Positions 3,138-18,188 of a stretch of 18,188 nt of DNA are shown piece by piece (positions within the stretch are counted from its first letter, which is position 1; each line of letters begins with the position of its first letter). Both the position numbers and the translations under genes were made by a program. The DNA comes from a virus (Duplodnaviria > Heunggongvirae > Uroviricota > Caudoviricetes): the IMG/VR virus record IMGVR_UViG_2671181094_000006, one strand, 5' to 3'. The notes beneath the pieces are model-generated. The model was not told the DNA's origin, did not search any database, and saw only the letters and a program-made list of their open reading frames with translations.

Positions 3138-3563
3138 TTAATGAACTTCCGGCATCACAGGCCATTCAATATCTGGGGCATCATCAGGGTTAACACGACT
3201 GAGCAGAACGGAGTATTTTTCCCAGTGTTCCAGTCGCGTTTTTTCATCCAAGGTAGCCATTCCGTATTTCACAGCACGCGCTAAAGGGACGATAACGTCC
3301 TCAGCCTTTGTACGTTGCCGCTCTTTTTCAGCCCCAGCCAGCCTGGATAACTGTGCTTTGGTCTGTGGAGGTACATCGACCCACGAGGGCAAGCCATCAG
3401 CCCCTACCCCCCTTTGCTTACCTTCTGGTGGAACCCTGGTGAACTCGTGAAAAACGTTATCACTGACTGCTATAAGGTCCGCTGGTAGAGAATTGTTGTC
3501 CCGATAAGCTGGTAATAATTCATCAGGGTAAAAACACGCCGTTGACGCACTAAAATGATACAT
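3138..3563 (-). CDS. tail fibre assembly protein (Tfa-like chaperone)
   Basis: Start MYHFSASTACFYPDE and C-terminus HWEKYSVLLSRVNPDDAPDIEWPVMPEV match the conserved ends of phage Tfa chaperones (...W.KYR.LL.RVD...APDIEWP..P). Its ATG at 3563 follows the upstream TAG at 3566-3568 closely. Confidence 0.7.
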   Translation of the reverse strand: MYHFSASTACFYPDELLPAYRDNNSLPADLIAVSDNVFHEFTRVPPEGKQRGVGADGLPSWVDVPPQTKAQLSRLAGAEKERQRTKAEDVIVPLARAVKYGMATLDEKTRLEHWEKYSVLLSRVNPDDAPDIEWPVMPEVH

Positions 3564-3565
3564 GA

Positions 3566-4099
3566 CTATTCCCCTATAGCTAACCATCCAAAATTATCTG
3601 CATTACCCGAACTGCCGCTGATCCAGCCATATGCACGGAAACCGGAATTGGAATCATTGGTTACGGACACGTAACGATTTCCATCTGCGTACTTCGTAGC
3701 AACAATAGCAATAGCCCGCTTAGGAAAAGGTATCGGATACTGAACATTACCTGATGGTGAATTAATAGTGGCAGTTCCCATTTGAACAATAATATTTTTC
3801 TTTTCACCTGATGGTGTTCGGGTAGGAATAATACAGTAACCCTGTGAAGTAAGGGCACCTACGATGGGTTCAGATAGAAGGGCGGTGATCCTCAACTCAT
3901 CAATAACTTCGTTTAACTGACCATCATTTTCAGGCTCAAGCTGGCGGCCAGAACCCTCTACCACGCCCACCATCTCACGCTGCCAGGTATTAAAAATATC
4001 GGCAACAAGAATTGTTGGTGATACCCCATTAGCAACATTACCTTGTGTAAATTCCCCATTACTATCAGCAGTATCAGTGACTGAACTTATCTTACGCAT
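3566..4099 (-). CDS. tail-fibre-tip-like protein (177 aa), too short for a full fibre
   Basis: Directly upstream of and coupled to tfa, which is the usual fibre-chaperone arrangement. The C-terminal half is Gly/Ser/Asn-rich and looks beta-rich (...GWISGSSGNADNFGWLAIGE). The call is mainly positional. Confidence 0.45.
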   Translation of the reverse strand: MRKISSVTDTADSNGEFTQGNVANGVSPTILVADIFNTWQREMVGVVEGSGRQLEPENDGQLNEVIDELRITALLSEPIVGALTSQGYCIIPTRTPSGEKKNIIVQMGTATINSPSGNVQYPIPFPKRAIAIVATKYADGNRYVSVTNDSNSGFRAYGWISGSSGNADNFGWLAIGE

Positions 4100-6289: not shown

Positions 6290-6824
6290 GAGCCTGCAAT
6301 CTGTCGTTGATGCGGCTCAGGTCGTAAACCCGGCGTTCAATATCCAGCATCAGGAAATTGTGGATCTCGGCCTGCTCAGGATTATCAGACTCTCTGGCCT
6401 GTAATAGCAATTCATTGTATCCATGCAAGCCGCCTGAGTTTTCCGCCGGGGTGGTGCCTTTCCCACGCAGGCAGCTAATGGGCTGATTACTCGTATCGTG
6501 TGTTTGCTTCTCCAGCACAATGACGCAATCCCACCAGTCGCCAAAGTCATACGTGTAAACCAGCTTGTCACCCTCATTCTGGAGCGCTGCCCATAGTGGT
6601 GTGATTGCCGCGTTACCCATGCTTTCACCCTCACCCCATACGCGATACTCGCTACCTAGATCACCTTTACGGCCTTTCTCGAACATATACAGATGTTCGT
6701 CATTCCAGCCAAAAGCCAACTGGATCACCGCGTGAAGTTCACTAAAGGGGATTTGCTCTGGAACCAGCACACGCCGCCATATTGGTGGTTTGCTGTCTCG
6801 GATGGTTATCTTTAGCTGGTACAT
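6282..6824 (-). CDS. pRiA4b ORF-3-like family protein (start taken at MYQLKITIRDSKPPIWRR)
   Basis: The N-terminal signature YQLKITIRDSKPPIWRRVLVP...LHAVIQLAFGWNDEHLYMF matches my recollection of the PRiA4b ORF-3-like domain. AGGA-containing RBS upstream of ATG 6824. Stop overlaps the B1 stop by 8 nt. Confidence 0.6.
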   Translation of the reverse strand: MYQLKITIRDSKPPIWRRVLVPEQIPFSELHAVIQLAFGWNDEHLYMFEKGRKGDLGSEYRVWGEGESMGNAAITPLWAALQNEGDKLVYTYDFGDWWDCVIVLEKQTHDTSNQPISCLRGKGTTPAENSGGLHGYNELLLQARESDNPEQAEIHNFLMLDIERRVYDLSRINDRLQALN

Positions 6825-6944
6825 GCAAATCCTGAATAAATGCGAATCGGAAGGATAACGATACTGACGCACTCACAATTCTGTAAAGGTGAATAAAGGT
6901 AATTTGCTTAATACGCATAAGTTACATGTGGAATAATCCCATAT

Positions 6945-7130
6945 CTACCTGCGCGGCGCTGGCTTCTTCCACTGGTAGGCAGGCGCTCGCATCATCTCCC
7001 CGAACCGTTTACGCCGGACTGTATCAGCTTCAATAATACGTTCCATCTCCCGAACCTCTACCGGGGTAAGCTGGTGGCCTTCATGCTCCATTTTGGCAGC
7101 GGTCAATAAAGCTATTTCGCGTGGTGTCAT
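6945..7130 (-). CDS. small hypothetical protein B2 (61 aa) with C-terminal RAPAYQWKKPAPRR motif
   Basis: Paralog of the 1904-2095 product by its C-terminal motif. ATG at 7130. Confidence 0.55.
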   Translation of the reverse strand: MTPREIALLTAAKMEHEGHQLTPVEVREMERIIEADTVRRKRFGEMMRAPAYQWKKPAPRR

Positions 7131-7266
7131 ACGCCATACCCTTTGGAAGGATGAAACACGCCCGGATTAAATTTTATTTTTCGCGGGTATAAACATTCGA
7201 TGAGGCGGGCAGTGCTTAAGGCTCAGGATTGCAGAGATTTGGCCTCCCCCTCCCGGTGATAGTTTA

Positions 7267-7363
7267 TTGCTTGATGTGGACGGCTTGCTATATTGGCGGA
7301 GAATGCAAATTGTCGCAGAAGTCTATCCCGCTCCCTGACGCCCCGTGCGGGCGTTTTGCTTTT
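7267..7363 (+). ncRNA. candidate small RNA (about 60 nt): sigma70-like promoter plus intrinsic terminator on the plus strand in a minus-strand gene context
   Basis: -35 TTGCTT (7267-7272), 16-nt spacer, -10 TATATT (7289-7294). GC-rich hairpin ACGCCC-CGTGC-GGGCGT (7338-7354) is followed by TTTTGCTTTT. No ORF of substance. Confidence 0.25.
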
Positions 7364-7973
7364 ACAAAGTCAGGCCAATGCCTCTGGCTGCTTTCCCCGT
7401 CTTACGCTCAATCACGCCCGTGATTCTATCTACTACCGGACTGAATGCCTGCCAGTAAGCCATCTCCATTGCTGACAACTCTGCCCGCTTCCTGTCAAAC
7501 GTAGCCCAGCGCATCCCCTTTGGTTTTGGGAACATGCGAATATCATTAAACAGGTTATTGGTAAGGTCATTGTTGCCCCATATCGCGCATCGCTGCTGGC
7601 GTATCTTCATTCGCATCCTGTCCAGTCTGTCGGCGCTCTGGCTTTTATAGTGGAGTTTCCAGCATCCCCGGCAGCCAATATCTTTTTTGCCGATATACAG
7701 CTTCGCTACCCGCTTTATGCAGTGGGGACAGACGTACCATTCCCGCACACCATACCCGGCTTGTGTGGTCGTGGTTCTGATTGCCCGTGTAACGCCGTTG
7801 ATTGTCATGGCGTAGCTGTCGGCTTGCCGGAAGGTATAAAACGTTCCGCTTTCGGTCTGGGTATAAAGCTGCGTCCCCGGTTCGGCGTCCGCCAGCCTGC
7901 TACGCATGTGCGCAAGGAATGGCAACCCTATGCGGGGCAGGTCGGTGGTATAGCTGCGTGTTCTGCCTCTCAC
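7362..7973 (-). CDS. conserved island protein with putative zinc ribbon (CPHC...CRGC); possibly YagK/YfjJ (inovirus Gp2-like) family
   Basis: 203-aa ORF with GTG start at 7973 preceded by AGGAGG at 7 nt spacing. Cys pairs lie in WYVCPHCIKRVAKLYIGKKDIGCRGCW. The family assignment is from memory and weak. Confidence 0.6.
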   Translation of the reverse strand: MRGRTRSYTTDLPRIGLPFLAHMRSRLADAEPGTQLYTQTESGTFYTFRQADSYAMTINGVTRAIRTTTTQAGYGVREWYVCPHCIKRVAKLYIGKKDIGCRGCWKLHYKSQSADRLDRMRMKIRQQRCAIWGNNDLTNNLFNDIRMFPKPKGMRWATFDRKRAELSAMEMAYWQAFSPVVDRITGVIERKTGKAARGIGLTL

Positions 7974-7989
7974 TGGCTGGCCTCCTGTG

Positions 7990-8260
7990 AATTACTGCGA
8001 ATCAAACTGCGAATGCGCAAAAATGAATACGAAATAATATGCGTATTTTACTGTAAATTGCGCACCAGTTTTGCAATTTCACATCAATAAAGCCAGTAAC
8101 CGCGCGGGTTGAGGATGGTTTGCGCATTGGTATCCGTTTCGTTTTGCGCAGATTTTTTGTGAACTGCGCAAATCGCATTGCCGCCGTTAGAATCCGTCAG
8201 ATGGTACGCACGCTGAATGCGCAGTTTTGCCGCGTACCTGACTGCGTACTGCGAACCAGT
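7990..8260. repeat. cluster of palindromic TGCGCA hexamers (at least 6 copies) and CTGCGAA motifs (at least 4 copies) in a 420-bp non-coding region
   Basis: Read directly: atgcgcaaaaa, attgcgcacc, tttgcgcatt, tttgcgcaga, ctgcgcaaat, atgcgcagtt; actgcgaa occurs four times. Lies between the PerC-like stop and the 7362-7973 gene start. Confidence 0.4.
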
Positions 8261-8395
8261 GGCGCGAACCAGAATATTATGGACAACCTAAATCACGTTC
8301 TGGCTTCCAGCCCGCGACTGGCGCGGTTCTCTCTTCATATCGGCTTTGAGTCTGTCCAGTACAGTCCAGAATTTACAGCCGTTTTAGTGCGAACA

Positions 8396-8707
8396 TTACT
8401 GCGAACAGTCGCCCCCGATGGTGGCCTGTCGTTGCTTCTTGCCGCCATTTAACCGGAAGGCGTTACCGTTCGGTTGCGCTATCCCCATGCGGTGTTGCGT
8501 TTCGGTAACAGCTTTATGCAGATCGCCAAAGTCCTCAACCTTCACGGGCGGGCGCTTCACGTTCTCCAGACACGTTTCACGGCGGCGCTTTATCCATTCC
8601 CGATCATCGTCCTCGGTGCATAACAGCATGACTTCCATCCATCGCGCGGCGGCGCGTCGGTACAGCCCTTTTGCTTCCAGATCCTCGGCTTTACTGTCGT
8701 TTACCAT
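8396..8707 (-). CDS. PerC-family transcriptional activator-like protein
   Basis: N-terminus KAEDLEAKGLYRRAAARWMEVMLLC...REWIKRRRETCL resembles the PerC pattern (AE.LE..GLWRRA..RW.EV). GAGGGGG RBS upstream of ATG 8707. Confidence 0.55.
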   Translation of the reverse strand: MVNDSKAEDLEAKGLYRRAAARWMEVMLLCTEDDDREWIKRRRETCLENVKRPPVKVEDFGDLHKAVTETQHRMGIAQPNGNAFRLNGGKKQRQATIGGDCSQ

Positions 8708-9567: not shown

Positions 9568-12345
9568 TTATTGCTCTGGCTGGCTTTCCTCCCCATCCGG
9601 CAGGAATTGCAAAACGTAAACGTTAATCTGCCTCCCCTGAATGCGCGGGCTTTTCCTCTGAAATTTTTTTCCGTCTGCCGAAGGGGTAAGCATCCCCGAT
9701 TCTTTCAGGACGCGGGCCACCTGCTGCCTGTTAAACCCCTTAGCAATATCCTTATCGAAAGTGTCGGGGAACGTGTAAAACGTTATCGGTGAATCGTCAT
9801 GATTTCCGCGCTGCCTGTATCCAGCCAGATTATGAATCGGCAGGCTGGCGGGGTCGTAAGGCAGCGGCGCGAATCGACTCAGGCCATAGGCATTTAAAAA
9901 TGCCTCCGCCTGCTCGATGATCTGCTGGTGCTCTTTGTTCCCCGTGCCGAACTCTTTTAGCCATGCGTTATAGGCGTGCTGTATCGCATCCCGGCACGTT
10001 TGAGCATCCCAGCCAGTAACCACGCCACCCATCAGTAAAGCGGCCTCCAGAATGGCAAATCTTGCCCCTACACGGTGAACCTGTTCCCCATAGTCGGCAG
10101 GAATTAGACTGCGCCAGCGGGCCTCACACTCACGAACGGCATCAATCGCCTGTTGCTGGTGGTCTGAAAGCCATCTGATCCACTCCCTCCCGGCAGCGCC
10201 ATGATGGTTCTGGTAAGCGTCTTTCAGCGCGTCGGCGTGGTCTCTCCCTGTCTGGTACTCATGAAAGCGCACCGCCTTACTCAGCGGGATATTCAGCAGT
10301 CGCACCAGTTGCCCCGCTTTTGTCTTGCGTCCTGCGGTGGAGATGAACGTTTCTAAATCCATTTCCCCGGTGCTGATTGCCACGGTGCGCCAGCGTTTCA
10401 GATCCCGGTTGCCTCCTTCCTTTGCTCCCTGCAATTTCCCCACGCCGTTAAACAGGGCATAGGCAGACTGAGCAACGCTTATCGGGTCTGCGCCCTGTCC
10501 GACTTCATCCAGTGGCATCAGCCCGTCATTGTGGGCGGCGGCCTCGTTTATCAGCCCCAGCGCCGTTCCGTACCACGTCAGGCGCAAGGCATCAGGGTTG
10601 CCATAAAGACTGCTCGCCACGTTCTGCGTGGTTGTTTTCCCGGCGCTCGATTGCTCGTAAAAATGAATCCCGAAGCCGTCACGCTCCGCCAGCCCGATTA
10701 ACGGTGCTGCAAGTGCGGCGGCAATGCCTGTCATCATCGCGTAGTTACCGTATGCCAGACGCGCAACACTCTTACGCCAGCTCTCTGAGGTTCCCGCCAC
10801 GGTGTACCCGGCAGCGGCAGAACTGCGGCCACTGAATAAAACGGGTTGTGCAGGTGCGCCGATAATCTCCCCGTCCGGCATGATGTATGCCCCGCACTGC
10901 CAGCCAGTAGCGTGAGCAACACGCCACAATTCACGTGAGCCGCTACGCTGTAACCAGTCAGCCAGAATCGCCCGCAAGCTGCTTTTGGTGGTGACGTTAA
11001 CCCCGCCCGCTTTCAGGGTGCGCCAGCCTTCGCGCTCCCCGATATCAGCCAGGGGGATAGCCGCTGTTGTCGGTATGCCTGCGCCAAAGGCCAGCCAGCG
11101 TAATATCAGATACTGATCCTTGTCGTCCCGCCCGGTGCCGATAACGTCCATCGGTGAGGCCAGCCAGCTTTCATTGTTGATAATCTCGCCGCTTTCCTTG
11201 TCCACTTTAGGCGTGATCCAGTAAACGCCATCTTTGCGGCTCTCAATGCGGGGTTTTAGCGGGTCTTTCTCTGGCTGGTCAGTTTTACCGCCCTCAATGG
11301 CCTGTAGTTGTGGTTTCACGCATTCCCCCTGCGGCTGGTACATCGAATCATTAAACGCAGCCGTAGCGACTTCCAGCCCGTGTTGCTGGTGGTAGTCGTT
11401 CCAGTCAGCTTTGCTGTCAGTCGGTGGCAGCGATACCCAGCCAGCCACGGATAAAGCCGCTTTCTCTGCGGCCTCCTTCCCGATGTTGGTGGCTCCGGTT
11501 TCGGAGGCTGCTGTAGGGTGGTCGTTATCTGCGGCGATAATAATTTGCGACTGCGGGTGTTTCCGGCGCATTACTCCGGCAACGTGGATCAGGTTCCCGG
11601 CGTCAATTGCCGCCACTGTGAGCGCGTCAGGCCGCATCTGGTGAACGGACAGGGCGGTAGCCAGCCCCTCGGCAATCACGACGCTTTGAGGCCGTTCCAG
11701 CGCGTTTACGGCGTAATATGCCCCGCGCTTTGCCGATCCCTTAATGAGTCGCTTTTCTCCCTGCGGGGTGATGGTCTGCGCGGCTGTGACTGCGCCGGAT
11801 TCATCCACCAGCTCCAGCAATAACGAACCATCGGGCATAAGCGGGTATTTAAACCCGGTCAGCCCTTTTGATTGCAGGTACTCAGATTCTCCCTGTATGG
11901 ATCTCAGGCGCATTCCGGTATACAGACGGGCAAACGTAGCCCTTCGCTGATCTGCGTCCTCTGCTGCCTGTTTCTGGCGCTCCTGCTCACGCTGCTGGCG
12001 GTCTGCGGCTAACTGCCTCTGTCTCTGGCTGGCAGCGTCTGGTGCTGATTCTGCGGCCCGGTAATCAATACCCAGCACATCAGCGGCAAGCTGTGCCGCC
12101 TCCGTGGTGTCGCAGTTGTTCACCTTCTTAATCAGGTCTAAGCCATCGCCCGCGCCGCACTGGTTGCAGATAAAGCTGCCGCGCCCGTTGTCGTCGAATC
12201 TGAAACGGTCTTTCCCACCACATGCAGGGCAGGGGGCATGGCGGCGCGATGAATCAGGAACGTCGATAGACAATCCGGCCAGCACATAAGGCCATCGCCC
12301 TGCTGCGGCGCTGGTCACTTCGCGGATAAGGTCGATATTACGCAT
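9568..12345 (-). CDS. primase-helicase (P4 alpha-like: N-terminal zinc ribbon, TOPRIM primase, C-terminal P-loop NTPase)
   Basis: 925 aa. Zinc ribbon CPACGGKDRFRF...CNQCG, TOPRIM acidic motifs (VVIAEGLATALS ... IIIAADND), Walker A-like SSAGKTT. GGGAGG RBS upstream of ATG 12345. Confidence 0.9.
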   Translation of the reverse strand: MRNIDLIREVTSAAAGRWPYVLAGLSIDVPDSSRRHAPCPACGGKDRFRFDDNGRGSFICNQCGAGDGLDLIKKVNNCDTTEAAQLAADVLGIDYRAAESAPDAASQRQRQLAADRQQREQERQKQAAEDADQRRATFARLYTGMRLRSIQGESEYLQSKGLTGFKYPLMPDGSLLLELVDESGAVTAAQTITPQGEKRLIKGSAKRGAYYAVNALERPQSVVIAEGLATALSVHQMRPDALTVAAIDAGNLIHVAGVMRRKHPQSQIIIAADNDHPTAASETGATNIGKEAAEKAALSVAGWVSLPPTDSKADWNDYHQQHGLEVATAAFNDSMYQPQGECVKPQLQAIEGGKTDQPEKDPLKPRIESRKDGVYWITPKVDKESGEIINNESWLASPMDVIGTGRDDKDQYLILRWLAFGAGIPTTAAIPLADIGEREGWRTLKAGGVNVTTKSSLRAILADWLQRSGSRELWRVAHATGWQCGAYIMPDGEIIGAPAQPVLFSGRSSAAAGYTVAGTSESWRKSVARLAYGNYAMMTGIAAALAAPLIGLAERDGFGIHFYEQSSAGKTTTQNVASSLYGNPDALRLTWYGTALGLINEAAAHNDGLMPLDEVGQGADPISVAQSAYALFNGVGKLQGAKEGGNRDLKRWRTVAISTGEMDLETFISTAGRKTKAGQLVRLLNIPLSKAVRFHEYQTGRDHADALKDAYQNHHGAAGREWIRWLSDHQQQAIDAVRECEARWRSLIPADYGEQVHRVGARFAILEAALLMGGVVTGWDAQTCRDAIQHAYNAWLKEFGTGNKEHQQIIEQAEAFLNAYGLSRFAPLPYDPASLPIHNLAGYRQRGNHDDSPITFYTFPDTFDKDIAKGFNRQQVARVLKESGMLTPSADGKKFQRKSPRIQGRQINVYVLQFLPDGEESQPEQ

Positions 12346-14690: not shown

Positions 14691-14807
14691 CCTCAAAGTG
14701 AGGACTGGTGGAATAATCAATGACTTAGGCACAAAGCGCCATTTTACGCTTTGCCATAAAAACAATGAGAAATCTACCAGAATGCAAATTTGCACTCTGT
14801 TCAGACT

Positions 14808-14894
14808 TTGACCATCAGCATTAACCCTGGTATGCTTAATCTGTTTCGGTTTTTCGTAGTGACATTGGCAGCTCTGCAAAGCTGCCTTTGTTTT
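14808..14894 (+). ncRNA. candidate short antisense RNA (about 50 nt) convergent on the 3' end of the Bro-N gene
   Basis: -35 TTGACC (14808-14813), 17-nt spacer, -10 TATGCT (14831-14836). Hairpin GGCAGC-N8-GCTGCC (14867-14886) followed by TTTGTTTT, which overlaps the Bro-N stop codon. Confidence 0.25.
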
Positions 14895-15510
14895 ATGCAT
14901 CATCTTCAACGCCCTCCAGCAATCCGGGTTGATACTTTCTCCATAATCCAATTTCTTCCATCTCAAGACGGGCTTTCTCTCCTTTGCACGCCTGTAGGTC
15001 GCTACCGCACTTACTGGCTTTCTTTGTGTACTGATCCTTGCGGCGACTGAAGTCATTTAGGAATGAGAACGGGACGCCGTATGAACCGGTTTTACGTATT
15101 GACGGGATTACTTCGCGGAACACCCAGTTTGTAAATCTGTGGGCAAACGAGCCTGTAGTAGAAGCTTTACGACTACGGGCAATCAGTTTATAAAAGCCTG
15201 ATTCTGCGGCCATATTCCAGCTACGTGCTCCACCACGTTTACCCGAATGACCCTCAGTTAAAGTTAGGGTCATTACCTCGTCGCCATCCAGAGAGGCAAC
15301 GGCACTGGTTGGATTGCTGATTTCCAGCGCCTGGCACACATCAGATACAACGAACCACGGCTCACCGAAAACATTCACGATCCTGACCGTGCGGCCTTCA
15401 AATTTAATTACTGAAATATCATTTTCACTTGCCGTGAAATTAGCCTTTTTGCTGGCTTCAGGGTGAGTCTTGCCGCTGCCAGTTAAGGCAGTAAATTTTT
15501 TCTGAGTCAT
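14893..15510 (-). CDS. Bro-N domain protein (phage antirepressor-like)
   Basis: N-terminal region FEGRTVRIVNVFGEPWFVVSDVCQALEISNPTSAVASLDGDE matches the Bro-N/antirepressor N-terminal signature. GGAG RBS upstream of ATG 15510. Confidence 0.75.
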   Translation of the reverse strand: MTQKKFTALTGSGKTHPEASKKANFTASENDISVIKFEGRTVRIVNVFGEPWFVVSDVCQALEISNPTSAVASLDGDEVMTLTLTEGHSGKRGGARSWNMAAESGFYKLIARSRKASTTGSFAHRFTNWVFREVIPSIRKTGSYGVPFSFLNDFSRRKDQYTKKASKCGSDLQACKGEKARLEMEEIGLWRKYQPGLLEGVEDDA

Positions 15511-16869: not shown

Positions 16870-16961
16870 ATCGTCACCCTCAACGCCCCTAAATAACTTG
16901 CGGGCCAGGCGGGTAGGGTTTCCCGCTTTTCGGTTGGCCGACCTAGACCCGCAATATCAGT

Positions 16962-18188
16962 TTAATCTCTATTCGCTACAGGTAACAGAACCACATTTTT
17001 ATGATTACCCGCAAGAAGTTCTAAACGTTCATGCCATTTGTTCAGCGCATCCAGCTTCTCCGGCAAGTACAGGCTACGGTTATATATAGCCATGACGCCC
17101 GGTAGAGCATGACCCAGCAGCAACTCTACAATATGCGGTGCTATGCCCATATTGTTTAACCCCGTGGAGAACGTGCGCCGCAGATCGTGAAGTGTCCACG
17201 GCTCGTTATGATGGAAATCTTTAAAAAGCCGTCGCCCTTTCAAAGATACAGCTTGCCGGGTGCGCTCTTCTCCCAGCAGCAGGCCTGTTTTACCCGTCTC
17301 GCGTTTTAACTCTTCCAGCCACGGGCGTATAGCTTCAGGGATTGATCTCACGATTTTCTCGCGGGTTTTGCTGTGCTCTTTCGGGACTGTCCAAATCCAC
17401 GAGGTAAAATCCCACTCCGACCATCGAGAGAGGCGAACTTCCATCGTTCGAGCGCCAAACAGCACCAGCATTTTGAGAAGACGTGAATAATACGGCTGCT
17501 GATCATCGCTGTCTGTGCAGCGCCATACATCGGCCAGCTCGCTATCTGACAATACGCGGTCACGTTGACCGGATGGCTGGCCTACATCCTGAATGGTGAG
17601 AAAGGCTAGAGCATCACTGGCGGCATAGCGGCGAACCTTGCAGAAGCGTAACGCCTGTTTAGAAATCTGGAACATGCGGCCGGCGGTCATGGGTTTGGTC
17701 AGATTTATTTCATCAAAACAGGCCACCCAATGACGGGTTTCACATCTGGTGAGGGGATAACGACCAAGGCGCGGGTAAATATGCTTGCGTAGCTGTGCCC
17801 TTACCAGCTCCTCATCGCTGCGCTTTCTCCTGGCGTAGTTCACCAGCCAGTATTCGAGAGCATCCTGTACTGTCACAGGTTTAAGCGTTTCTTCGGTGCT
17901 CAGTTCAAGCTCTGTTTTTGGATCAAGACCACCAGCCAGCCACTGGCGACACTTTTCCCGCTTTTCTCTCGCCGCTTTTAGCGACAAATCCGGGTAACGG
18001 CCAAGCGTTAAACGTTCGAGTTTGCTACCCCTTCCGCCCAATCGGTAAGCGAACACCCAGCTAACGTTACCTTGCTTCGAAACCTTAATGCTCAGTCCTT
18101 CACCATCGGCAATCATGATCGGTGCTTCACGCTCAGAACCCTGCAGCGCTTTTAGCTTTTTGTCGCTCAGTTTGTTTGTACCAGCCAT
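16962..18188 (-). CDS. int: tyrosine recombinase, P4-type integrase (N-terminal arm-binding domain plus catalytic domain)
   Basis: 408 aa. N-terminal DGEGLSIKVSKQGNVSWVFAYR resembles the P4-family arm-binding motif. C-terminus has HDLRRTFST and LLGHA...AIYNRSLY (catalytic R, H-x-x-R, Y). The start codon sits exactly at the window edge, so the true N-terminus could lie beyond it. Confidence 0.9.
   Translation of the reverse strand: MAGTNKLSDKKLKALQGSEREAPIMIADGEGLSIKVSKQGNVSWVFAYRLGGRGSKLERLTLGRYPDLSLKAAREKREKCRQWLAGGLDPKTELELSTEETLKPVTVQDALEYWLVNYARRKRSDEELVRAQLRKHIYPRLGRYPLTRCETRHWVACFDEINLTKPMTAGRMFQISKQALRFCKVRRYAASDALAFLTIQDVGQPSGQRDRVLSDSELADVWRCTDSDDQQPYYSRLLKMLVLFGARTMEVRLSRWSEWDFTSWIWTVPKEHSKTREKIVRSIPEAIRPWLEELKRETGKTGLLLGEERTRQAVSLKGRRLFKDFHHNEPWTLHDLRRTFSTGLNNMGIAPHIVELLLGHALPGVMAIYNRSLYLPEKLDALNKWHERLELLAGNHKNVVLLPVANRD

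Follow-up and report, generated by a model that had tools for sequence, protein, structure and literature searches.

Does the gap between two minus-strand genes of a viral DNA contain a small RNA (sRNA) gene of its own? This question is raised by positions 7267-7363 of an 18,188-nucleotide stretch (IMG/VR record IMGVR_UViG_2671181094_000006), which we call the window and whose numbering is used throughout. An earlier note on this DNA had described a plus-strand promoter followed by a GC-rich hairpin and T tract, with no meaningful open reading frame (ORF) between them, and had likened the presumed product to the C4 and CI antisense RNAs. We tentatively favor the view that 7267-7363 is a plus-strand unit that would yield a candidate non-coding RNA of ~60 nucleotides, although not one related to C4 or CI. 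The firmest result of the analysis concerns the DNA immediately to the left of this stretch, which the earlier note did not mention, and which is a copy of the cos packaging site of a helper phage. The features that define the proposed unit are as follows (the -35 hexamer and the spacer were read from the sequence).

7267-7272, plus strand: -35-like hexamer TTGCTT, matching TTGACA at three of six positions
7273-7288, plus strand: spacer of 16 nucleotides
7289-7294, plus strand: -10 box TATATT, matching the consensus at five of six positions
7286-7294, plus strand: extended -10 element TGCTATATT (TGn + TATATT), with the TG at 7286-7287
7301-7363, plus strand: predicted non-coding transcript of ~55-65 nucleotides, deduced from the geometry of promoter and terminator
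7303-7338, plus strand: 11-codon ORF (MQIVAEVYPAP) within the predicted transcript, probably non-coding
7337-7355, plus strand: terminator hairpin GACGCCC/CGTGC/GGGCGTT, with a 7-bp stem (five G-C pairs), a 5-nucleotide loop and a predicted energy of -10.8 kcal/mol
7354-7363, plus strand: T tract TTTTGCTTTT, directly 3′ of the hairpin

Promoter and terminator are thus located where the earlier note had placed them, in the gap between the minus-strand ORFs 6945..7130 (61 amino acids) and 7362..7973 (203 amino acids), and the only ORF that lies fully within the predicted transcript is the 11-codon frame listed above. The TG of the extended -10 element had not been mentioned previously. The hairpin begins 42 nucleotides beyond the -10 box, and it ranks first among the four sites that a terminator scan of positions 6500-8200 returned. 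The first two T residues of the adjoining tract pair within the stem, and its final two bases overlap the stop codon of the 203-amino-acid gene. The start of the transcript was placed 7 nucleotides past the -10 box, and its end within the T tract. When read from the minus strand the hairpin is equally stable (-11.5 kcal/mol versus -10.8 kcal/mol for the plus strand) and is followed by CAGGGAGCGG, such that a U tract is absent. The presence of the T tract on the plus strand only implies that plus-strand transcription ends at the hairpin, and the terminator is therefore predicted to function for plus-strand transcription alone.

Other plus-strand features in the vicinity do not change this picture. 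Two longer ORFs that cross the gap (7229..7423 and 7293..7475) run antisense into the 203-amino-acid gene and look spurious, and the segment has no ORF of at least 30 codons that is confined to the gap. Two upstream plus-strand promoters were considered, at 6908-6937 and 7008-7037. The latter is specific to the allele carried by the window and was rejected as a conserved alternative, and no conserved plus-strand promoter was found further upstream of the flagged one. Our preferred reading is built on the extended -10 promoter, the one-directional terminator, the absence of an ORF, and the conservation of the DNA from the -35 hexamer to about position +28 of the transcript. This last line of evidence requires that the surroundings of the unit be described.

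7131-7361, no strand assigned: mobile intergenic cassette of 231 bp, comprising the cos site, the island-specific segment, and the hairpin with its T tract
7166-7254, minus strand: copy of an SfV/SfI/SfII/SfIV/ST64B-type cos site, with ~80% identity to the phage HNH-terS intergenic region
7202-7211, minus strand: predicted cohesive end (cosN) GAGGCGGGCA, the reverse complement of TGCCCGCCTC, to be compared with the measured SfI end TGCCCGCCCC
7256-7336, plus strand: island-specific conserved segment that includes the promoter as well as the 5′ portion of the predicted transcript, with only three of 73 sites variable in 7256-7328
6945-7130, minus strand: 61-amino-acid gene of unassigned function, which occupies the place of terS in phages
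7362-7973, minus strand: 203-amino-acid gene with CxxC...CxxC motifs, the upstream neighbor of the cassette

Alignments identify 7166-7254 as a copied cos site of the SfV/HK97-like helper phages, in which terminase and HNH endonuclease work together. Positions 7157-7254 are ~80% identical to DNA of an O157:H7 prophage and of the phages vB_EcoM-720R4, SKA5, SfII, ST64B and SfV, and a BLAST search with the gap located this portion in 1612 of 5426 complete Escherichia coli genomes. In the O157:H7 prophage, vB_EcoM-720R4 and SfV, the matching region sits between the HNH endonuclease gene and a P27-family terS, with terS on the side where the island has its 61-amino-acid gene. The cohesive end of SfI has been determined experimentally to be the 10-nucleotide sequence TGCCCGCCCC (PMC3636060). 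Its reverse complement, GGGGCGGGCA, aligns with window positions 7202-7211 at nine of ten positions, and sister islands match the SfI end at all ten. Furthermore, the linear GenBank records of SfV and SfIV start inside the cos match, with the record ends located 7 nucleotides from the cohesive end. A cos copy of this kind would let a helper phage package the island. The site itself belongs to a known kind, as islands with a helper cos have been described before. What is gained is that the packaging signal of this island family is pinned down as an SfV/HK97-type, HNH-dependent cos with a recognizable cohesive end, which predicts the prophages that would mobilize these islands.

The cos region also varies among islands. 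At least two variants exist of the cosQ-side flank of cosN (7214-7245), namely the window type GTGCTTAAGGCTCAGGATTGC and the type found in locus L009, GTCCCGGACAGTCAGGGCTGT, the second of which is nearer to SfV. Likewise, position 7203 within the cohesive end is either A or G among islands. Individual islands may correspond to different helper phages. In E. coli C 237-04, an island next to clpS (L005) ends in the same cos type and brings along genes of its own for a small terminase, head decoration and the major capsid protein, such that it looks like a capsid-forming phage-inducible chromosomal island (PICI). The cos type is thus common to at least two satellite architectures. In a human gut metagenome contig (UESL01000920), a 91-nucleotide insertion separates the start codon of the 61-amino-acid gene homologue from the cos homology.

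The boundaries of the cassette are evident from three Enterobacter and Shimwellia islands (L015-L017). These carry the same 203- and 61-amino-acid genes (~92% and 80-95% identity, respectively), parted by an unrelated spacer of 71 nucleotides, and their homology to the window is interrupted between 7129/7130 and 7363. Because homology breaks at these two points, 7131-7361 behaves as one insertable unit, and the cos site can be said to move between islands as a discrete intergenic cassette. Positions 7256-7361 are missing from most islands that share this cos and the 61-amino-acid neighbor (the L004 type, and the Lonsdalea loci L021 and L022), which indicates that cos function does not need the segment.

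The distribution of the segment is narrow. Of 5426 E. coli genomes, 32 contain positions 7250-7380; one of these carriers, strain 2022CK-00450 (NZ_CP104681), has a copy with 99.8% identity. The segment is also known from genomes of Atlantibacter, Enterobacter and Kluyvera, and 18 metagenome contigs carry it as well. The stretch 7256-7361 was found in islands only, and not in phages. Neither the window nor related loci contain the segment a second time, and 18 related islands that have other intergenic sequences yielded no analogous promoter-terminator units. For comparison, 24 distinct copies were gathered (from eight E. coli genomes, one IMG/VR contig, Atlantibacter, Enterobacter and Kluyvera, and 18 metagenome contigs). 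The metagenome search pattern fixes 24 positions, and 12 copies were found without using this pattern; we refer to these as unbiased copies.

Nucleotide diversity (pi) was computed over the ten copies whose homology spans the entire region. It amounts to 0.010 for 7256-7328 (three variable sites in 73), compared with 0.03-0.047 for cos, 0.094 for the 61-amino-acid gene, 0.036-0.073 for the 203-amino-acid gene, and 0.16 for the linker at 7329-7336. The block at 7256-7328, which extends from just upstream of the -35 hexamer to about +28, is thus the least variable stretch of the region, and it is nearly invariant across two cos variants, different chromosomal sites, and different flanks and right-hand genes. 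The -35 hexamer TTGCTT is invariant in all 12 unbiased copies. The hairpin stem is unchanged in 12 of 13 distinct copies, and three of the four hairpin changes affect the loop (the loss of one base from the C run, C7348T, and C7344T combined with G7345T). A conserved promoter and 5′ body, a variable linker and changes that are mostly confined to a loop form the pattern typical of sRNA genes, although the case is not strong. One further candidate for support was discarded: the weak plus-strand terminator in L009-type islands is the product of a deletion junction, as alignment shows that L009 arose by two deletions (7350 to 7762, and from 7803 on).

A number of results weigh against the existence of an RNA gene at this site. 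The -35 hexamer matches the consensus at just three of six positions, and the promoter overall (8 of 12 positions plus the TG) falls below the threshold of the promoter scan and so was not listed by it. To estimate how often such an arrangement arises by chance, criteria were relaxed until they admitted the site, and promoter-plus-terminator units were counted in dinucleotide-shuffled 18-kb windows. These hold 0.37 units on average, and 26% of the shuffles hold at least one, meaning that the promoter and terminator pattern alone is not beyond chance at the scale of the window; the same rate scaled to the 231-nucleotide gap gives ~0.005 expected units. The predicted RNA as a whole is no more stable than shuffled sequence (z = -0.08). 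Conservation, too, has its exceptions. The 5′ part of the pRiA4b-ORF3 gene is nearly as invariant as the segment (pi 0.0145), and in the Atlantibacter copy (L018) the change G7287A removes the TG of the extended -10 element, such that the promoter is kept in 11 of the 12 unbiased copies. The sole change in the hairpin stem, G7351A in L045, breaks a plus-strand pair and gives a G.U pair in the minus-strand RNA. No compensatory change is seen among the 13 distinct copies, which are too similar to one another for this purpose: six of the seven stem pairs never vary, and the covariation term of RNAalifold is ~0. Finally, 11 of the 32 E. coli carriers, along with L014 and L048, are deletion derivatives of the L009 type, to which strain 33-6 also belongs; they keep the promoter and the first 50 nucleotides but have lost the hairpin's 3′ arm together with the T tract. 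The persistence of these derivatives indicates that the canonical terminator is dispensable for persistence of the island.

Searches for relatives and targets were likewise negative. A cmscan of both strands of 7100-7500 against 4227 Rfam families, with permissive filters and E values up to 10, returned no match, and the scan of the whole window at gathering thresholds yielded int-alpA as the sole family. When 7301-7336 was compared by RNAduplex with translation-start regions (53 from SfV, used here as the helper although it may not be the true one, and 23 from the island), the best duplex reached -25.7 kcal/mol, compared with -30.4 +/- 2.3 kcal/mol for shuffled sequences, and 198 of 200 shuffles performed equally well or better. 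The longest perfect complementarity is 11 nucleotides in SfV and 12 nucleotides in the island (14779-14790; p ~0.07). The complementarity to island or helper genes that the earlier note had envisaged is thus no greater than expected by chance in either the duplex or the exact-match search. Moreover, the window holds no repeated complementary sites of the kind exemplified by seqA/seqC in P4. With neither an Rfam match nor such sites, membership in the C4/CI family was rejected. Of the original proposal, a plus-strand non-coding transcript survives as the best single reading, and the family analogy does not.

The explanation that competes most seriously is that there is no RNA gene at all. Under this explanation, which we regard as somewhat unlikely, the hairpin is a 3′ structure of the minus-strand mRNA of the 203-amino-acid gene (a stabilizer or weak pause site), the hexamers are fortuitous, and the conservation stems from recent horizontal spread linked to cos. 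The hairpin indeed lies 7 nucleotides past the stop codon of this gene and is equally stable on the minus strand, the only strand on which the L045 variant retains its pairing, and both the chance rate at window scale and the loss of the terminator from about a third of E. coli carriers fit this scenario. A second hairpin with a plus-strand T tract (14867-14886), located after another minus-strand gene, hints at a general feature of gene ends. In addition, all copies are at least 93% identical, which indicates that they diverged recently, and so the low diversity could reflect recent spread with cos rather than selection. However, the islands L015-L017 carry the 203-amino-acid gene at 92% identity without the hairpin, which is therefore not the gene's own 3′ structure. 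The earlier note had itself recognized that the hairpin might act only as a 3′ stabilizer. This alternative is weakened because hairpin and T tract travel with the cassette and not with the gene. Moreover, a stabilizer would have no use for the A tract that precedes the hairpin on the minus strand, which is exactly what a plus-strand terminator requires, and the segment is less variable than the cos site with which it would have hitch-hiked.

It is improbable, in our estimation, that 7256-7336 serves instead as a DNA-level accessory of cos, for example as a site on the cosQ side to which a terminase partner, IHF or a protein of the island binds so that island packaging is favored, with an incidental resemblance to a promoter. 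The segment abuts the cos homology and always travels with cos, and it contains the repeats TTGCTTGATGTGG and TTGCTATATTGG, 18 nucleotides apart, as well as an IHF-like ATCAAGCAATAA on the minus strand (all read from the sequence). There is also a precedent in EcCICFT073, where an Rpp-TerS complex recognizes a cosB that is specific to the island (PMC6739421). Yet most islands with the same cos and 61-amino-acid neighbor (the L004 type) do without the segment, which furthermore lies opposite the phage terS side, where lambda keeps cosB (PMC6739421). A DNA site would also leave the attached plus-strand terminator unexplained.

A third explanation, which we consider distinctly improbable, assigns the segment to the minus strand as an activator-dependent promoter or regulatory region for the 61-amino-acid and pRiA4b-ORF3 genes (responding, for example, to a PerC homologue or a helper factor), with the hairpin as an insulator. 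The gap does lie upstream of the 61-amino-acid gene, and activator-dependent promoters may diverge from consensus. The minus strand of the segment nonetheless offers only a poor match (GCGACA, 18 nucleotides, TATAGC). The L018 change G7287A improves this match (GCGACA, 18 nucleotides, TATAGT, 9 of 12 positions), but neither the window nor most copies have a sigma-70 match on the minus strand that reaches 9 of 12 positions. The 203- and 61-amino-acid genes of L015-L017 are only 71 nucleotides apart and look co-transcribed, a hairpin without a minus-strand U tract would not terminate transcription, and the minus-strand leader is not unusually structured (z = +1.31 versus shuffles). Lastly, a nearly leaderless mRNA for the 11-residue peptide MQIVAEVYPAP (7303-7338) is most improbable: its ATG lies 9 nucleotides past the -10 box and its ORF, intact in all copies, ends at the foot of the terminator, but a start at 7301 leaves a leader of 2 nucleotides, the GGAG located 1 nucleotide from the ATG is too close to serve as a Shine-Dalgarno sequence, two of four substitutions change residues (A to V and P to L; the other two are synonymous), and the intactness of the ORF follows simply from the near-invariance of the DNA.

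If the candidate RNA is made, its gene would consist of a promoter and ~35 strongly conserved, unstructured nucleotides, followed after a short linker of variable sequence by a canonical intrinsic terminator. The RNA would be transcribed towards the minus-strand operon and would end exactly at the stop codon of the 203-amino-acid gene. Acting in cis, the convergent promoter and its perfectly complementary RNA might interfere with, or trigger processing of, transcripts that read through from the 203-amino-acid gene, across cos, and into the 61-amino-acid and pRiA4b-ORF3 genes. Such a mechanism is the most economical because no target in trans emerged and because the RNA would be perfectly complementary to the read-through transcript from the 203-amino-acid gene to cos, and we infer that it is the most likely mode of action. 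The RNA might also act in trans on helper transcripts, by analogy with SviR (see below), but the target searches lend this no support. The more ambitious proposition is that the locus encodes a previously undescribed sRNA of ~60 nucleotides at the cos-proximal end of a satellite, which controls read-through into cos-linked genes or targets helper transcripts, and which would be the first sRNA regulator in PICI-type satellites of E. coli; this we judge to be rather unlikely. If packaging of the island runs from cos towards the terS side, as in lambda, the end with the candidate RNA would be packaged last, and if ejection is lambda-like too, this end would be the first to reach a new cell.

The gene content of the window indicates that it is a phage-inducible, PICI-type satellite island, as it includes an integrase, an alpA-type region, a primase/replication module and a helper packaging signal, without a full set of virion genes. 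Nearly all predicted island genes are on the minus strand. The relevant features, in addition to those given above, are these.

16962-18188: integrase ORF
16886-16953, minus strand: int-alpA RNA motif (RF02996), full-length, scoring 62.6 bits against a gathering threshold of 35.8, immediately downstream of the integrase ORF
9568-12345: ORF of 925 amino acids

In the closest E. coli genome, the equivalent region is annotated with toprim primase, SSB, PerC and Icd-like genes, and a PerC-family gene, supported by a Pfam match, is located at 8396..8707 of the window. Between this gene and the 203-amino-acid gene lie ~420 nucleotides (7974-8395) with no convincing ORF. Two minus-strand ORFs match tail-fibre proteins, at 3138-3587 (the assembly protein Caudo_TAP, 1.3e-30) and at 3566-4099 (a gp53-like tail-fibre C-terminal domain, 1.7e-10). 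Such products are unannotated in the corresponding region of the closest E. coli relative, NZ_CP104681, and these ORFs may be satellite cargo or part of a neighboring element.

Neither neighbor of the cassette could be assigned a function by homology, as neither the 61- nor the 203-amino-acid protein has a sequence match in Pfam, PHROG or PDB. The 61-amino-acid family is spread over Enterobacteriaceae and has an invariant C-terminal PAYQWKKP; it is predicted to fold into a two-helix hairpin (pLDDT 87), for which PDB offers no informative fold match. Because it lacks both such sequence matches and similarity to SfV TerS, the protein was rejected as a mimic of TerS or Rpp. Similarly, the lack of similarity to SfV HNH led us to reject the segment as a remnant of a phage HNH gene and the 203-amino-acid protein as an HNH relative. 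The two genes form a conserved pair in many Enterobacteriaceae islands, with or without cos between them (L015-L017, L024, L026 and L031). The 61-amino-acid allele of the window, which NZ_CP104681 shares, departs from almost every other copy at dozens of sites within 6984-7103 and is identical to them at its ends, a mosaic pattern that suggests recombination.

A second plus-strand unit is present at 14808-14895 (TTGACC, 17 nucleotides, TATGCT with a TG, the hairpin at 14867-14886 with -11.2 kcal/mol, and TTTGTTTTAT), and its hairpin adjoins the stop codon of a minus-strand Bro-N antirepressor gene (14893..15510). Immediately upstream, the sequence AGAATGCAAATT at 14779-14790 exactly repeats 7300-7311 and overlaps the perfect palindrome TGCAAATTTGCA (14783-14794). 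This region (14808-14895 with 14779-14794) matches only 18 E. coli genomes. Terminator-like sites in general, defined by at least 6 bp, at least four G-C pairs and a T-rich tail, number seven on the plus strand, compared with 2.7 +/- 1.7 in shuffled sequence (p ~0.02), and two on the coding minus strand; the majority of these sites are intragenic.

PICI-type satellites are major vehicles of gene transfer in Enterobacteriaceae. If the candidate RNA is real, a conserved RNA gene at the packaging site would add an RNA layer to the conflict between satellites and helpers in E. coli; if the RNA is not made, the finding amounts to ordinary non-coding DNA that flanks a cos site. The cos site has close parallels. 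The EcCICFT073 island carries cos sites of the lambda/phi80 type (PMC6092414, PMC6739421), and SaPIbov5 uses HNH-dependent cos phages according to work cited in PMC6092414. Like these elements, the island in the window has no recognized terminase genes and carries a copy of a helper cos for the helper terminase, and it resembles SaPIbov5 in that its helper type uses an HNH endonuclease encoded next to cos. It differs from EcCICFT073 in that its cos, known from sequence, belongs to the SfV/SfI/ST64B group rather than to lambda and is phage-like on both flanks of cosN, whereas EcCICFT073 has replaced cosB; no Rpp homologue was recognized in the window.

The candidate RNA itself can be compared with three known systems. 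The CI RNA of P4 and the C4 RNA of P1/P7 are processed from longer transcripts and pair with repeated upstream target sites. They are short non-coding RNAs of satellites or prophages that act by base pairing, as the candidate might, but the candidate would have a promoter and terminator of its own and shares neither an Rfam family nor repeated complementary sites with them. StxS and similar RNAs are short terminated prophage transcripts that act as sRNAs, and StxS derives from a late promoter and a terminator on the sense strand of the late operon. These examples illustrate that a mobile element could obtain a regulatory RNA from a constitutive promoter whose short transcript is ended by an intrinsic terminator close by, although the unit described here is antisense to the island operon. 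To our knowledge, SviR is the only sRNA documented in the conflict between a satellite and its helper, and the known means by which PICI-type satellites exploit helper phages are all based on proteins. SviR is a trans-acting sRNA of the PLE satellite of Vibrio cholerae, supported by Northern blot and Hi-GRIL-seq (bioRxiv 10.1101/2022.04.08.487710). The candidate has no sequence relation to SviR, adjoins cos, is restricted to a sub-lineage of islands, is known from sequence alone, and has no target above chance. Nevertheless, both would be small RNAs encoded by a satellite and conserved across a satellite lineage, such that SviR offers a functional model for action of the candidate in trans. 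If real, the candidate would represent a novel family of sRNAs in satellites of the E. coli type, and SviR would be its sole functional precedent.

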